Shown piece by piece: positions 1-29,631 of a stretch of DNA of 36,618 nt; position 1 is the first letter of the stretch; the number at the start of each line of letters is the position of its first letter. The notes beneath the pieces were generated by a model. The model did no database searches, was not told the origin of the DNA, and worked only from the letters and a program-made list of their open reading frames with translations. Position numbers and translations under genes: made by a program. Source of the DNA: a virus (lineage: Duplodnaviria; Heunggongvirae; Uroviricota; Caudoviricetes). The stretch lies in the IMG/VR virus record IMGVR_UViG_2602041909_000007, one strand, 5' to 3'.

Positions 1-1293
<1,293 letters not shown>

Positions 1294-1313: not shown

Positions 1314-1337
1314 AAAAAGCGCCTGCGGGCGCTTTAA
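1314..1337. terminator. Stem-loop terminator downstream of serS (stronger T-tract on minus strand)
   Basis: AAAGCGCC-tgcg-GGCGCTTT hairpin; plus strand followed by TTT only, minus strand followed by TTTTT. Confidence 0.5.
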
Positions 1338-1445: not shown

Positions 1446-1477
1446 TTGGTGTCCTCATGAGTGAGGGAACCAAAAAG

Positions 1478-1506
1478 AAAACCCGCAGTTTTTACGCTGC
1501 GGGTTT
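1478..1506. terminator. Bidirectional rho-independent terminator-like hairpin (likely 3' end of the hok-like transcript on the minus strand)
   Basis: AAACCCGCAG-tttttacg-CTGCGGGTTT stem-loop; minus strand has a long T-run (TTTCTTTTTG) after the stem. Confidence 0.55.
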
Positions 1507-1592
1507 CTGCTTTGGGATGTGTATAGGGTGCCTTATCGACCTTACCCTGGCAACCGATTGACGGGGAAGTTGCCTTCCCCGTCGCGGTTTTC

Positions 1593-1736
1593 TTACTGTC
1601 TACACTGTAAGAACGCCGCAAACTCCGCTCCCCAGAAGCTCATCCGTATCTCGCAGAGCGAACCCCGCAACATCCAGATGATGAGGATTGCCGTCACGCA
1701 CAGTGTGGTGATGGCGATTAGCGATTTTTGCGACAT
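1593..1736 (-). CDS. Hok/Gef-family type I toxin-like small membrane peptide (47 aa)
   Basis: Not in ORF track (<60 aa). My translation: MSQKSLIAITTLCVTAILIIWMLRGSLCEIRMSFWGAEFAAFLQCRQ. One N-terminal TM helix followed by SLCEIR and EFAAF motifs, as in Hok of R1 (…RKSLCEIR…EVAAF…). AGGAG Shine-Dalgarno 9 nt upstream of ATG. Confidence 0.6.
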   Translation of the reverse strand: MSQKSLIAITTLCVTAILIIWMLRGSLCEIRMSFWGAEFAAFLQCRQ

Positions 1737-1839
1737 AGCACTTGCTCCTTTTTCGGAGAGGCGCTAACCTACGACTTGCGAAGGTTGTATGGCTAGGGCC
1801 TCGGGTTAACGTTAAAGTTGACTCGGGGCCTTTCCACAT
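1600..1839 (-). CDS. Mok-like overlapping reading frame (modulator of killing) of the hok-like locus
   Basis: 79-aa ORF in a different frame starting ~100 nt upstream of the hok-like ATG and ending 7 nt past its stop, the characteristic mok/hok overlap geometry; no independent sequence conservation assessed. Confidence 0.35.
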   Translation of the reverse strand: MWKGPESTLTLTRGPSHTTFASRRLAPLRKRSKCYVAKIANRHHHTVRDGNPHHLDVAGFALRDTDELLGSGVCGVLTV

Positions 1840-2403
1840 CCGGCCTTCAGGTATTCCCTCCAGCCATCAGCCGAAAGGCACCCGCGCGAATTCTAGCCTG
1901 GTTTTTTCCCTTGTTTCAATCCGTTGAGGCCTGTCAGTCTTCTGATATAAAATTCCCGACCGCAGACATTATTCAGTCACGCATTTGATACATGCTTCCG
2001 CCGGCGTTCGCGCCGGTTTTTCGTCCTGTTGCTGCATAGATCGTCATGTGCGATCGAGGCGCGGCATTGATCCTTTTTTCAGTTTAATTTCGACTCTCAA
2101 TTTTACGCAGGCCGCGCCGCGTCTGGCTTCGTTGTTTGACGATTTTTCTATGCGATCCTTTCGCGATCGTGTCTTACCCCACGTAAAGCATGAAAACTCT
2201 TTTAATATCATGCGGTTTCGTTGACCCCGCCATTTATGGGATCGTAAAAAACCTCTCTGAAAACTGCAAAAAATTTCAAAACGTGAAATTTCAGATCTTC
2301 GCTTTTCCCTCAGTTGCTGCGCGGGCTGGCGGTCATTTTTGCACGGCAGAAAACTGAAAAAGTGTTTCGACACAAAACCCGCGGGTTGGAGGGGGTAGCG
2401 CGG

Positions 2404-25453: not shown

Positions 25454-25768
25454 TCACTTCGGGAAAAACGCCTGAATATTCTTTTTCACCTGCTGCATAT
25501 GGGGGGCGCTGTCTGCTGCTGGTTGCGCCGGTTTTTCAGGCTGTACTGGTAGCGGTGGCATCCGTATTTCGTCTTCTGACCATTCTGCCAGCGAATACGC
25601 CAACGCGGGGGTGCGTTTTATAAGAGCCAGTCCAGCCAGAAAAGCCGCGCGTTGTGCGCGGCTGCGTTCGGAGGCTGGCAGGCTGTCGAGGTAACTGCAC
25701 GCCTCCCGTTCGCTCTTGACGACGGCGGGCTTCAGATAGAAACTTATCCGTCTGGTTGGTGTCGTCAT
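25454..25768 (-). CDS. parR: ParR-like centromere-binding adaptor (104 aa)
   Basis: Immediately downstream of parM homolog; LDSLPASERSRAQRAAFLAGLAL resembles R1 ParR (LDSIPQGERSRLNRAALTAGLAL); start at ATG 25768 with AGGAG SD. Confidence 0.7.
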   Translation of the reverse strand: MTTPTRRISFYLKPAVVKSEREACSYLDSLPASERSRAQRAAFLAGLALIKRTPALAYSLAEWSEDEIRMPPLPVQPEKPAQPAADSAPHMQQVKKNIQAFFPK

Positions 25769-25772
25769 TGAT

Positions 25773-26732
25773 TTACTCCTTGTCCATTGCGTACAGCCCA
25801 TTAACCAGAGCAAACTGTGGCACCCCGTCCGCGATGAAAGTCGCATTAACTCCGCAGGCTTCGCGGATAGCGGGTGCCACAATCTCCGCTCCTCCACCTA
25901 CAACCATCACCCGCCCGTAACCCGAAAAAACCGCCAGCGCGCGGATCACGCGTTGTTTCAGTGTTTCCTCCTTTTCACGAATAACTGCCATCAGGCTGGC
26001 GTAATGCGCGTCATTGTGGATGTGCTGGCGCAGCCAGGCTTCATCGTGGCGATGTTCGATAATGGTATTGGCGATGTGGTGACTGGTGCGCATACCGTTG
26101 GTGGCCATCACCGACAGCACGGCATCGGCCATCAGAGAAACGCCTACGTGTGGATCGCAAAACACCTGGCTGATACCTGCCAGTTGCCCCTGAACCTTTG
26201 CCACATCCAGCGTGGTTCCGCCCAAATCCACAATCAGCAGGGATTCAAACGGACTCATGTCAGCCAGTGCCTTAAAACCAGCCGGAATGGATTCAGGCAT
26301 AACCCGCACGTTACGGATAGTGAATGCCTCGCCGTTCTGGTACTCCACCGGGCGCATAACGTTCGCTTTTTTGCGGTTGATGTTGGCCATGTCCGGCTGT
26401 GCGTTTGTGTCGAAATACTCGCTCAGTGGCAGGGTAACAACCACATCCACTTCCTGTGGTGTGATGCCTGATTTGACCAGCGCGTGGTGAATGGCGATTA
26501 CATTCACATCGCTGTACTGGTATTGCGTGTCGGTCGTCTGGACAAAGCGATCGCTGACCGGATCAAAACCATAGCGCACGCCATCAAGCATGTAGTTCGC
26601 GGGCTGCGTGCCACCGAACGGCGCAGACCATTCCGACTTGAAGCTGTTCGGGCTGATGGCGTTGCGGCGTTCGCCGTTCTCAGTCCATGCCAGCTTGATG
26701 TTGGTGGAGCCGTCGTCGATACAAATTTTCAT
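25773..26732 (-). CDS. parM: ParM/StbA-family actin-like segregation ATPase (319 aa)
   Basis: Near-colinear similarity to plasmid R1 ParM as recalled: IDDGSTNIKL, ISPNSFK, YSDVNV.A.HHAL, VMPESIPAG, DLGGTTLD, GGGAE, LVNG.Y. Confidence 0.9.
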   Translation of the reverse strand: MKICIDDGSTNIKLAWTENGERRNAISPNSFKSEWSAPFGGTQPANYMLDGVRYGFDPVSDRFVQTTDTQYQYSDVNVIAIHHALVKSGITPQEVDVVVTLPLSEYFDTNAQPDMANINRKKANVMRPVEYQNGEAFTIRNVRVMPESIPAGFKALADMSPFESLLIVDLGGTTLDVAKVQGQLAGISQVFCDPHVGVSLMADAVLSVMATNGMRTSHHIANTIIEHRHDEAWLRQHIHNDAHYASLMAVIREKEETLKQRVIRALAVFSGYGRVMVVGGGAEIVAPAIREACGVNATFIADGVPQFALVNGLYAMDKE

Positions 26733-26763
26733 GTCGCTTTTCCTTATGTTGATTAATTAATCG

Positions 26764-26876
26764 TTTACGGGATTTTTAAATCCCGTTTTCGCCTGTTTTG
26801 TGCGCGCTTCATATATCGCGGCGCGTTTTTTGCTCATTTACGGGATTTGTGAATCCCGTTTCTGTCTGTTTTTTGT
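26764..26876. repeat. Two ~38-bp direct repeats each containing palindrome ACGGGATTT(n)AAATCCCGT; candidate parC-like centromere / ParR binding sites
   Basis: tttacgggatttttaaatcccgtttt (26764-26789) and tttacgggatttgtgaatcccgtttc (26838-26863); first copy is intergenic upstream of parM, second lies in the last ~20 codons of the gpA-like ORF. Confidence 0.4.
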
Positions 26877-29631
26877 TTCTACTGGTCAGGCCACCCCGCA
26901 GCAGGTCTGCTTTGCGGCGGGCGCGTTCAGTTGTTTCACTGATTCTCTGTGCGTGCTCTGCGTCACGGATGGCGCGCAGCATGTCAGAAAGCACGGTAAC
27001 GGGGGTTTTCATGGTGTTCTGGTCCTGCTGAAGTGTGGATGCCAGACGTGCGGCGGCTTCGGGGTCTGATGCCCCCAGCTGTGCCAGATAGCTGGCGACC
27101 GGGTTATGGCGGATCTCCGTGCTGCTTACGCCGTGATTACGGCTCAGGTGCTGCCAGAGCTGCGTGATTCGGCTGTCCGGGCGGGTATCCGGTTTGCGTA
27201 CAATTTCAAATCCCTGTGGTGCAATGATGCTGCCGTCAACGTACAGGCTGCCGCCCCGTAACAGGTGCTGCATCTGCTGTTCACCGATATGCAGGCCGAG
27301 AGATTCGGCAGATTCCCGCCATTCTTTAGCGAGTAATTCGTGGTTATCAGGCAAAGGCCGTGGCTGTTTGCGGCTCTGTGTCCAGTTCTGCATTTCATCA
27401 CTGCTGTTTTTTGCCTGCTTGTCACGCAGCGAACGCATCAGAGCCCGGCGTTCGTGCCGTTTCAGTGAGCGCATCCATTCGTTCACTTCAACGCCGTCAG
27501 GGAGCTGCGGCCACGGTGCTGGCCGTTCTTTCGGCTGTTCTGTCCCGTTGTTGTCCGTTTCCTGTACACGGGGACAGTTATTGCCACGAGTCCAAGGGGC
27601 GGCAGGGCCGCCCTGAAGGTCAAAACCATTTTCGCGGGCGCTGTCTTCCGCTTCCGGTTTACGTCTTACCAGCTTCCAGTTATCCGGATGTGTGCACACA
27701 CGGGAAGACTCCCCGATGAGTGGTGACCAGATCCCGTAAATCTGTACGCTCTGTTCGCCGTAATCGTTCAGCTCATCTGCGAGGTCGTAGGCGGTGCGAA
27801 TCAGGTAGTCTTTGCGTGGAACAAGTACGCCGCCCTGTTTTTCAATGTAGGAGGCAAAACACCCGGCATCAGCGGCAGCGAGCACTGCATCCATTGCGTC
27901 ATCCTTCAGCCGTTGCGGGCCTTCCGGGTTGCGTGCCATCTGGCTGGCAAGGCGGCGCAGTTCACGCCACACCTGACGGGAGGGGATGCCAAAGAACTGG
28001 AACTGGCGGACCCGGTGAAGGCGCGCCCAGCCGATGGCGCGCTCCACGCTCTCGGCCATTGATTTTCCGGTTTCGTGGTCAACGCGTGGCTTGCCCGTTT
28101 TCGGGTCGATACCATCCACGGCGCGGCTGTCCAGGTTCTTTCCGATGTAGGTGGCGATGTAGCTGGTTGGCGTGCCTTTTGAGCCGTCGACGTACTCCGC
28201 TTTAAAACGCGGAGTTATGTCATCGCCCAGCTCGTGGCGGTCTTCCTGAATGGCAATATCGCAGACGTGGGACACGATGGTTTCAATCTCGTCCGGATGT
28301 GCAAAGACCATCATATGCCAGTGCACAGTGCCGTCATGGTGAGGCTCCACCGTGCGGATGCCATACCAGCGAAGACCGTCGCGGTTCAGTTTTTTGCGGA
28401 CCGCCGCAAAAAACGTGTTAACCAGGTAATCGCTGGAGTCGCGCATGGTGGCCCCGTTCCATTTGGGATTCGGATGACCGTTCTCCGTTGTTGCGTGGTA
28501 TTTTGACGGGCAGGTGACAGTCAGAAACACCGCTCTGTCGCCACGGGCTTCGGCCAGAAGTTCCAGCCCCTTCATGGTGGCCATCATTTCTGCCTTACGG
28601 TGAACCGGGTTACTTACTCCCGCGTAATACACCGTCTCGAGATCAATCGTGAACCCGTCTTCATTTTCCAGCATGAAACTTTTCAGGAAATCGCGTGTTT
28701 TCTCGCGCTGTGCGCGAAACTCGCTTAATGCGTCCTGGCTCAGATAGGGCGATGTTTTTCTGGAAACCAGACAGGCGGCGCGGAGTTGTTCTTCTCTCCA
28801 CTCGCAACGTAACAGCCACAGTTTGCGTTTCCACCATTCCGCACAGGTCAGGCGAAGGACTGCGCCCGGCAGCAGCTCCGTGTCCGGTTCGTTCCTCCGG
28901 TCTTTATCTGTTGTCAGTGCGTCATAATGTGGAGGCATGATGTGCAGGTGTAACGCCATGCGGGCCAGCATCTGATACGTCTTCAGCGTTACATCCATGG
29001 TCAGTTCGCCATCGGTCGCGCCAAAGCCATCGCAGAGTTTTTCGAAGGTGCTGCTGAACATCGCCGCCGTCATGGTGGCCAGCGTCTGTATCTGGTGTTT
29101 GTTGAGCTGCGGCAGGTAAAGCAAATCGTCCAGGCGTTCGCGTCCGGCAAGGGAGCGATAACCCGGTGTCAGCCAGCGTCCGTCAGTGCGATCCAGACGT
29201 TCGAATATTTTGCGCAGGGTTCCGCGTGCATAGCGTTCCGCCTGCCAGCTCTTTTTGCCTTTCCGGCGATCGGCTTCCTGTTTTTTGCGCAGGAAGGAGA
29301 GGTGGCGAATAAGCGGATCGCGCAGATAGGACGGCAGCAGGCGCAGCGAGGCCATGGCTTCATCCACCGCGCCGCGTGCCTGTTTTCTGGCGTCTCCTGC
29401 CAGTGTGATGGTTTTGTCCTGTTTTTCCTGTGCATCCAGGCTTTTATTAATCAGGTTGCCCAGCGGCGTGGCGGAGAACGCCGCATCAGCCTTTTCCTGT
29501 CGGCGCTCGTTCTCTGCCCGGTAGGCATCCAGCCAGGAGGAAAGCGCGGATTCAGGTGCGGGGATCCCCGTTCCTTCACGCCCCACTGCGTGGCGCGGTT
29601 GTTGCCAGTCCCTGATGTACTCTGTCGTCAT
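26809..29631 (-). CDS. A: Replication initiation endonuclease (P2 gpA-like HUH rolling-circle initiator, 940 aa)
   Basis: HUH-type motif TVHWHMMVF and catalytic-Tyr region TSYIATYIGKNLD; position in early operon upstream of head genes as in P2; ~180 aa longer than P2 gpA. Confidence 0.8.
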   Translation of the reverse strand: MTTEYIRDWQQPRHAVGREGTGIPAPESALSSWLDAYRAENERRQEKADAAFSATPLGNLINKSLDAQEKQDKTITLAGDARKQARGAVDEAMASLRLLPSYLRDPLIRHLSFLRKKQEADRRKGKKSWQAERYARGTLRKIFERLDRTDGRWLTPGYRSLAGRERLDDLLYLPQLNKHQIQTLATMTAAMFSSTFEKLCDGFGATDGELTMDVTLKTYQMLARMALHLHIMPPHYDALTTDKDRRNEPDTELLPGAVLRLTCAEWWKRKLWLLRCEWREEQLRAACLVSRKTSPYLSQDALSEFRAQREKTRDFLKSFMLENEDGFTIDLETVYYAGVSNPVHRKAEMMATMKGLELLAEARGDRAVFLTVTCPSKYHATTENGHPNPKWNGATMRDSSDYLVNTFFAAVRKKLNRDGLRWYGIRTVEPHHDGTVHWHMMVFAHPDEIETIVSHVCDIAIQEDRHELGDDITPRFKAEYVDGSKGTPTSYIATYIGKNLDSRAVDGIDPKTGKPRVDHETGKSMAESVERAIGWARLHRVRQFQFFGIPSRQVWRELRRLASQMARNPEGPQRLKDDAMDAVLAAADAGCFASYIEKQGGVLVPRKDYLIRTAYDLADELNDYGEQSVQIYGIWSPLIGESSRVCTHPDNWKLVRRKPEAEDSARENGFDLQGGPAAPWTRGNNCPRVQETDNNGTEQPKERPAPWPQLPDGVEVNEWMRSLKRHERRALMRSLRDKQAKNSSDEMQNWTQSRKQPRPLPDNHELLAKEWRESAESLGLHIGEQQMQHLLRGGSLYVDGSIIAPQGFEIVRKPDTRPDSRITQLWQHLSRNHGVSSTEIRHNPVASYLAQLGASDPEAAARLASTLQQDQNTMKTPVTVLSDMLRAIRDAEHAQRISETTERARRKADLLRGGLTSRNKKQTETGFTNPVNEQKTRRDI

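Follow-up and report, generated by a model that had tools for sequence, protein, structure and literature searches.

In the well-known hok/sok family, a small membrane-killing peptide is restrained by an antisense RNA. Here we describe a member of this family near the start of a 36,618-nucleotide (nt) stretch of viral DNA (Duplodnaviria; Heunggongvirae; Uroviricota; Caudoviricetes; IMG/VR record IMGVR_UViG_2602041909_000007), referred to throughout as the window. The window opens with serS (1..1293, plus strand), whose product is essentially the Escherichia coli K-12 protein. Beyond it, on the minus strand, lies a compact unit that reaches from the T-run of a terminator (~1470) to a -35 box (1919), and that holds the toxin gene (hok), an overlapping upstream open reading frame (ORF) in the position of mok, and a set of candidate RNA elements named after those of characterized family members (tac, fbi, ucb and a Sok-like antisense RNA; Table 1). 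An initial annotation had proposed a hok/mok-like type I toxin locus at 1540-1950. The position given was right but the extent was not, as the unit covers ~1470-1919; the identification itself is borne out by profile and RefSeq matches, by the tac/fbi and ucb pairings, and by the 3' stem-loop and candidate antisense promoter described below.

The Hok peptide and its family

The short ORF singled out initially is present, and its 47-amino-acid (aa) translation (MSQKSLIAITTLCVTAILIIWMLRGSLCEIRMSFWGAEFAAFLQCRQ) matches the Pfam family PF01848 (HOK_GEF) over residues 7-45 with 34 bits (E 2.2e-8), above the gathering score of 22. The match to PHROG 251 (‘MokW-like host killing’) is stronger (78.8 bits, E 4e-22), while the best NCBIfam match, the HokA equivalog model NF007290, reaches 37.6 bits, far under the curated cut-off of 89 bits; the gene is therefore not a hokA ortholog. 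Seven positions reported as >80% conserved among 1264 Hok peptides (M1, C16, T18, L30, C31, E32 and E41) all have their counterparts in the window peptide, at M1, C13, T15, L27, C28, E29 and E38, respectively. The peptide also has the N-terminal hydrophobic helix of the family (residues 6-23, LIAITTLCVTAILIIWML), and both of its cysteines (C28 and C45) are hard-coded in the gene. RefSeq holds an identical protein, WP_000078906.1 (‘Hok/Gef family protein’), found in strain E300010, in which the locus is 100% identical across the hok module; this exact peptide carries the Hok/Gef name in both NCBI and UniRef, and is on record from 43 contigs.

The module is widespread in E. coli. A 1267-nt query consisting of the serS-proximal spacer, the hok module and a 630-nt upstream spacer is matched by 1688 of 5426 complete genomes (~31%), mostly partially and at 80-90% identity. 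More than 90 related loci were collected, and 44 distinct versions were aligned; counts given out of 43 leave out one row (L090) that is partly masked. The genome search for relatives used a seven-peptide alignment as query, and a scan of species-representative genomes with the same alignment returned six loci, which added little diversity. Three of these six are E. coli-type hok contigs filed under unexpected names (L090, L091 and L093, under a Planococcaceae metagenome-assembled genome, Vagococcus sp. and Xanthomonas pisi, respectively), and probably represent enterobacterial contamination of those assemblies.

All 43 distinct relatives scored retain an intact hok ORF (45-47 aa). Many hok codons vary only synonymously, and variation among relatives is mostly synonymous; as judged from this alignment, the peptide is under purifying selection. 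The resemblance to Hok is thus more than chance. That the ORF and its hairpin arose as a fortuitous likeness in non-coding DNA might be argued from the shortness of the ORF, which falls below the size cut-off of the initial annotation, and from the number of promoter-like sites in the region (two, not above the 1.2 expected from shuffled sequence). This explanation has a vanishingly small probability, as it is refuted by profile E-values of 2e-8 to 4e-22, by the identical protein in RefSeq, and by the conservation of both ORF and RNA structure, with compensatory changes, over dozens of loci.

The hok mRNA, its overlapping frame and the predicted antisense RNA

A promoter scan finds the hok promoter to match 10 of 12 consensus positions, and among relatives the -10 box is kept as TAGAAT, TAGATT or TAAATT. 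The predicted mRNA begins with GGGUGCC at 1883, 6 nt past the -10. The Rfam model RF01794 (sok / CssrC) matches full length (model positions 1-157) at 1723-1883 on the minus strand with 38.6 bits (E 9e-7), which is under its gathering score of 59, so that the match is kept as positional support only. Because it falls on the hok-sense strand, it marks the hok leader. The RF01794 model is named ‘sok antitoxin’, and its consensus opens in the manner of the hok mRNA 5' end and closes with AUG; what it models appears to be the hok leader strand, not the antisense RNA.

Two alternative pairings of the mRNA 5' end are predicted. The initial annotation had pointed to tac/fbi pairing as something to look for in the minus-strand transcript, and folding of the ~410-nt RNA recovers it: the minimum free energy (MFE) structure is closed by a 15-pair helix joining 1883-1869 with 1541-1526 (z = -8.3), and this helix is 95.5% paired across the 44 distinct sequences. 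RNAalifold, applied to the 44-sequence alignment, returns the competing tac/ucb pairing instead of the tac/fbi helix, which was therefore counted explicitly on the alignment. Truncating the RNA at 1556 makes GAAAGGCCCC the partner of the 5' end in the MFE fold, as in the RNAalifold consensus; the leader then becomes a long hairpin over the variable region, and the hairpin that holds the hok Shine-Dalgarno (SD) sequence is weaker. The tac/ucb pairs are nearly invariant, and so offer no covariation evidence. The AGGAG SD is present as initially described; its hairpin (helix 7 of the structure) also forms in folds of the window, with 94.8% of alignment cells paired.

The best-supported element of the structure is the 3' stem-loop (helix 16), in which five of ten pairs have changed in a compensatory manner and pairing is kept in 99.8% of cells. 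Its core is a hairpin that had been put forward as the folded 3' end of the hok mRNA. The perfect 9-bp stem stands, but the primary transcript does not end there, since both fbi (1541-1526) and an intrinsic terminator (stem 1507-1478) lie further 3'. By analogy with plasmid R1, in which the hok mRNA combines a two-state pairing design with a protective last stem-loop (PMC9841398), the stem-loop at 1559-1584 is likely the 3' end and protective stem of the processed, translatable hok mRNA. The terminator is the only minus-strand terminator-like site found by a terminator scan from 2600 to 1294. Some relatives have it swapped for another, or parted from fbi by an inserted gene encoding a TM2-domain protein. 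Such a gene is seen in E. coli K_EC180, where it sits between fbi and the terminator segment (raiA locus, L003 6019-6453) and is followed by a com-like gene and a DNA methyltransferase gene.

Taken as a whole, the structure shows compensatory changes in 15 pairs, against 5.7 expected from shuffles (none of 500 shuffles reaches 15), and 92.8% of its cells are paired, against 39-47% with slid partners, a control that is generous because the structure came from the window's own fold. Over the >90 loci, the hok promoter (query positions 1, 19 or 31) is where BLAST homology typically begins, and in many of them the homology ends at query positions 400-403, 3-6 nt beyond the conserved GGCACCC of fbi. 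Homology is thus bounded by promoter and fbi, so that the inherited unit coincides with the predicted transcript.

The out-of-frame ORF that had been assigned to the mok position is likewise present (79 aa), and we consider it real in the window. A possible SD (GAAGG, 1848-1844) lies 4 nt 5' of its ATG, and the frame traverses the hok SD to end 7 nt short of the hok stop. Translation of mok in R1 must reach the hok SD (PMC9841398); the mok-like frame spans that site, and in the window would conform to the R1 rule. Its start lies 103 nt 5' of hok, compared to ~58 nt in R1 (PMC9841398), and profile scans of Pfam, NCBIfam and PHROG gave no family match for its product. The mok-like ATG is conserved in 42 of the 43 readable rows (L095 has AAG), and in most relatives just 1-29 codons can be read from it. 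Allowing any start in the frame, a long overlapping ORF is found in 24 of 43 distinct sequences, nine through an ATG at nt 45 and 15 through one at nt 17. By these counts the overlapping mok frame is evolutionarily unstable in the subfamily.

The initial annotation had suggested looking for a plus-strand Sok-like promoter near 1840-1910. It cannot lie there, because transcription from that position would run away from hok; a conserved candidate antisense promoter is found at 1742-1770 instead. Its hexamers, TTGCTC and TAACCT, rank with the best-conserved blocks of the locus (column identity 0.97 and 0.996, respectively), and variability within the module peaks in the 18 nt just 3' of the predicted Sok start (0.81). 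This pattern would fit a conserved promoter driving the specificity-determining 5' end of an antisense RNA. The promoter is collinear with that of sokW in phage 933W, where the antisense RNA is annotated (AF125520), and the sokW -10 (TAACC) is the element mutated in a ‘pro-less’ construct (PMC8621323), as deduced from primers YO-421 and YO-597. The predicted RNA would end in a hairpin (1795-1832) that forms a perfect 16-bp helix on the plus strand (-35 kcal/mol, z = -4.6) and contains three C-A mismatches on the mRNA strand. Across the 18 distinct variants, the hairpin is without exception more stable on the plus strand than on the complementary one, with a mean difference of 8.3 kcal/mol, which argues that the plus-strand RNA is the one selected. 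Two alternative distal stems of the hairpin both keep their pairing.

Table 1. Coordinates of the features of the hok module and the adjoining attachment core in the window
Feature	Position	Strand	Description
att core AAAGCGCCTGCGGGCGCTTT	1316..1335		serS terminator stem; chromosome/prophage junction
Intrinsic terminator	1470..1507	minus	Stem 1507-1478, 11 pairs, then CTTTTTGG T-run
fbi GGUCGAUAAGGCACCC	1526..1541 (1541-1526)	minus	Complementary to mRNA 5' end; closes full-length fold
3' stem-loop	1559..1584	minus	11 pairs with G-U; core is a perfect 9-bp stem with 4-nt loop, 1561-1582
hok coding sequence	1593..1736	minus	ATG start, 47 aa, MSQKSLIAITTLCVTAILIIWMLRGSLCEIRMSFWGAEFAAFLQCRQ; Pfam HOK_GEF, PHROG 251, RefSeq identity
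mok-like ORF	1600..1839	minus	79 codons, ATG 1839-1837, out of frame with hok
Sok-like promoter (predicted)	1742..1770	plus	-35 TTGCTC 1742-1747, 17-nt spacer, -10 TAACCT 1765-1770; overlaps hok SD
hok SD AGGAG	1745..1749 (1749-1745)	minus	8 nt 5' of ATG; pairs with upstream CUCC in local hairpin
Predicted Sok-like RNA, ~58 nt	~1777..1834	plus	Ends inferred from annotated sokW
ucb-like box GAAAGGCCCC	1825..1834 (1834-1825)	minus	Alternative partner of mRNA 5' end; column identity 0.986
tac GGGUGCCUUUCGGCU (mRNA 5' end)	1869..1883	minus	RF01794 start at 1883; hokW-like arrangement; column identity 0.981
hok promoter	1890..1919	minus	-35 TTGAAA 1919-1914, 18-nt spacer, -10 TAGAAT 1895-1890

The locus is prophage DNA

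Ownership of the locus by chromosome or prophage had been considered undecidable from the window, and is settled in favor of the prophage by comparison with the K-12 serS-dmsA spacer together with the attachment (att) core at 1316-1335. Identity to the K-12 spacer ends at 1335, directly past the serS terminator stem, and in E300010, a 99.5% identical strain, the same 20 nt (AAAGCGCCTGCGGGCGCTTT) are repeated beyond the integrase, where the K-12 spacer and dmsA resume. As the att core lies to the left of hok, all DNA on the right of this core is inserted, including hok, and the locus is part of the prophage, not of the chromosome. The far end of the prophage encodes an integrase, a helix-turn-helix repressor and a Cox family protein, a P2-like gene content. 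STEC719 has the same hok module, beside the same 565-aa baseplate gene, at flk, and K_EC180 has it at raiA; the module thus moves with prophages that occupy other sites in the chromosome. P88-like phages (Xuanwuvirus), Citrobacter phage Shae_phiSM, many Stx phages and some plasmids carry related modules. A Mu-like transposable prophage, suggested by the varied insertion sites and by the com/methylase pair of one relative, was discarded in view of the integrase, Cox and the att duplication.

Several features surround the module within the prophage. Between serS and the hok terminator (1294-1470), the serS terminator stem has been rebuilt after integration, with its T-tract replaced by AAGAAG (1336-1341). 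A second plus-strand hairpin followed by a T-run lies within the prophage end (1412-1441), and could block read-through from serS that would run antisense over hok. On the other side, a spacer of ~630 nt (1930-2560) separates the hok promoter from the baseplate gene; related E. coli prophages conserve it, and it is free of annotated coding sequences; its ORFs match no family, and blastn against 50,697 phage records gave no match to it. The spacer contains three direct repeats ending in TTTACGT (2399-2441). An RNA of ~65 nt could be delimited by a promoter-like site on the plus strand (1924-1953) and a terminator-like hairpin (2000-2017); such a plus-strand small RNA (~1958-2026) was rejected as a candidate, its fold being no better than those of shuffled sequences (z = -1.5).

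The prophage is a mosaic. Over window 2565-27000, megablast against the same 50,697 phage records gave no match for the ~23 kb of structural genes; the parM/replication segment (~25570-27000) alone matches P88-like Xuanwuvirus phages, at 94-96% identity. The early region contains two further minus-strand RNA families above their gathering scores: the C4 antisense RNA (Rfam RF01695, 30362-30449, 76.8 bits) and isrK (RF01394, 30485-30560, 61.3 bits).

Relation to known systems and likely function

The window locus belongs to a catalogued subfamily, Hok ‘cluster 72’ (preprint 10.1101/2025.08.07.668861), whose members include 72_1621, of the P88-like prophage type (91% identical to the window peptide), and 72_1589, the lom copy of 933W/Sp5 (~70-72% identical). 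Over the whole module these loci are 82-88% identical to the window in nucleotides, and they share its promoter, tac, ucb, Sok promoter and fbi blocks. The window peptide differs in one extra residue (ITTLC vs. ITFC) and in R24 vs. H24, and its 79-codon mok-frame ORF contrasts with the leader ORFs of 8-19 codons in the P88 and 933W-lom copies.

Both 933W and VT2-Sakai (Sp5) carry two hok loci, the characterized hokW/mokW/sokW and a second copy just after lom. In 933W the lom-adjacent copy (L007 1675-1815), a relative of the window locus, is unannotated in AF125520 and has an 8-codon leader ORF. The layout of hokW-mokW-sokW (AF125520, PMC8621323) is collinear with that of the window: a TAGAAT -10 is followed after 6 nt by a GGGTGC 5' end, and both loci have the AAAGCCCC box, an antisense -10 TAACCT inside GTAGGTTAGC, an antisense -35 that overlaps the hok SD, and a GCACCC close to the 3' end. 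Like the window locus, hokW-mokW-sokW is borne by a prophage, and experiments have demonstrated its functions as toxin and antitoxin. The HokW toxin (51 aa, starting MKQQKAM) is nevertheless a different paralog; a HokW-like peptide is 33% identical to that of the window, which serves as a rough guide only. In addition, mokW is annotated in frame with hokW (starting 57 nt upstream), the Sok target sequences of the two loci are unrelated, and hokW sits elsewhere in the lambdoid genome. An identification of the window locus with the characterized hokW-sokW, invited by the ‘MokW-like’ label in records, was accordingly ruled out: the hokW primers map to ~57.7 kb in VT2-Sakai and 58.7 kb in 933W, and the toxins differ.

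Features of the R1 hok/sok system (PMC9841398) that are predicted for the window locus as well are the tac/fbi closure of the full-length mRNA, tac/ucb pairing after 3' processing, the protective last stem-loop, a cis-antisense Sok of ~60 nt, and an upstream ORF that overlaps through the hok SD. Identity to the R1 Hok peptide is ~35%. The two differ in carrier, a prophage in one case and a plasmid in the other, and in the position of antisense pairing, which in R1 spans the mok start and in the window would fall just downstream of the mok-like start. HokA of E. coli K-12 (hokA/sokA, b4455) is 40% identical to the window peptide by BLASTP. Both toxins have hard-coded cysteines, and therefore need no TadA recoding. 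Unlike the intact window locus, hokA/mokA of K-12 is disrupted by IS150.

We are confident that the locus is a complete hok/sok-type type I toxin-antitoxin module, carried as a moron just inside the att-proximal end of a P2-like prophage integrated in the serS terminator. What was computed here is membership of the family, the two alternative pairings, conservation of the antisense promoter and hairpin, and ownership by the prophage; RNA processing, relative RNA half-lives, RNase III cleavage, toxicity and biological role are proposed by extension from R1 and hokW. On this model, a ~410-nt minus-strand mRNA (1883 to ~1472) would encode the 47-aa membrane toxin Hok. The nascent mRNA would be locked, with tac paired to the 3'-near fbi and the hok SD held in its local hairpin. 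Slow 3' trimming to the stem-loop at 1584-1559 would strip fbi, allowing the 5' end to pair with ucb and opening the mRNA to both translation and the antisense RNA. A short, constitutive plus-strand Sok-like RNA (~1777-1834) would then pair with the leader just downstream of the mok-like start, blocking translation and triggering decay of the duplex. Should the supply of Sok end, through loss of the prophage or through transcription shut-off in induction or infection, the longer-lived processed mRNA would be translated, and Hok would collapse the membrane potential.

Several observations weigh against this assignment. In addition to the sub-threshold RF01794 score, the tac/fbi helix varies one-sidedly in eight pairs and shows no compensatory double change among the 44 sequences, so that it is supported by conservation, energetics and the module boundaries rather than by covariation. 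Of the 43 relatives, 19 lack the long mok-frame ORF, the P88 and 933W copies among them, with hok intact in all; since R1 needs mok translation to reach the SD, coupling may work differently in this subfamily, or there may be silent copies in it. The Sok-like promoter is weak (3/6 and 3/6 consensus positions), and was missed by the promoter scan, and the U-tract after the Sok hairpin is short (UUU). In favor of the assignment, toxicity of the window peptide is suggested by proxy, through the 91%-identical 72_1621, which is among the 42 of 45 homologs reported toxic; 72_1621 and 72_1589 were both in that toxicity panel, and neither is among its three non-toxic peptides (preprint 10.1101/2025.08.07.668861). 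A literature search found no post-segregational killing data for this locus or its subfamily, and, as a further point against, chromosomal hok loci that have been tested show no post-segregational killing (cited in the same preprint).

Some of these observations could instead indicate a silent or decaying copy, still recognizable but incapable of producing toxin, as are several chromosomal hok loci of E. coli K-12, where IS150 interrupts hokA/mokA. Such a state, which we judge quite improbable, would accord with the lack of post-segregational killing by tested chromosomal loci, with the loss of the long mok frame in many relatives, and with two tac mismatches in one of them (L014). In the window, however, all elements are intact (promoter, tac, fbi, ucb, mok ATG and 79-codon frame, hok SD, ORF, 3' stem-loop, terminator and antisense promoter), relatives show the peptide to be under purifying selection, and a 91%-identical peptide is reported toxic.

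A different question is what such a module does for its carrier. The same hok/sok-type module might act mainly in the phage life cycle rather than in addiction, either by aiding lysis and release when Sok collapses at induction, or by aborting superinfecting phages; we regard this as possible, albeit not the favored explanation. It finds precedent in hokW-sokW, which raises Sp5 release ~2-fold after mitomycin C, HokW appearing in a RecA-dependent manner (PMC8621323), and in R1 hok/sok, which lowers T4 plating (cited in the literature). The module also lies directly 3' of the late tail/baseplate operon, on the same strand, and no minus-strand terminator-like site is predicted from the end of the baseplate gene (2565) through the hok promoter to 1883, so that late read-through is conceivable. 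On the other hand, hokW is a different paralog (57.7 kb in VT2-Sakai), the relative of the window locus being the second copy after lom, and the read-through idea rests solely on the absence of a predicted terminator. In a more far-reaching version, which we consider doubtful, translation control in the subfamily may not need a canonical mok, and the gene could be a late-phase lysis-assisting or anti-superinfection gene induced with the prophage, not an addiction module; this is raised because 19 of 43 relatives have no long upstream ORF reaching the hok SD, and because no terminator is predicted after the baseplate operon.

For the hok/sok-type module as we assign it, prophage stabilization, help with lysis on induction as in hokW, and exclusion of other phages are thus candidate roles. 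By analogy with characterized systems, the most likely is selfish stabilization of the prophage, possibly combined with lysis help on induction.

The locus is an ordinary, already annotated hok/sok family member, and the finding itself is already known. Its import beyond correct annotation is small, as the exact peptide is in RefSeq, the subfamily has been catalogued and a close relative has been toxicity-tested. What is added here is the assignment to a prophage, explicit coordinates for the RNA elements of the subfamily, and the unstable mok frame. As mok is deemed essential in the R1 paradigm, this instability may be of interest for the regulation of type I toxins and for the accessory genes of prophages.

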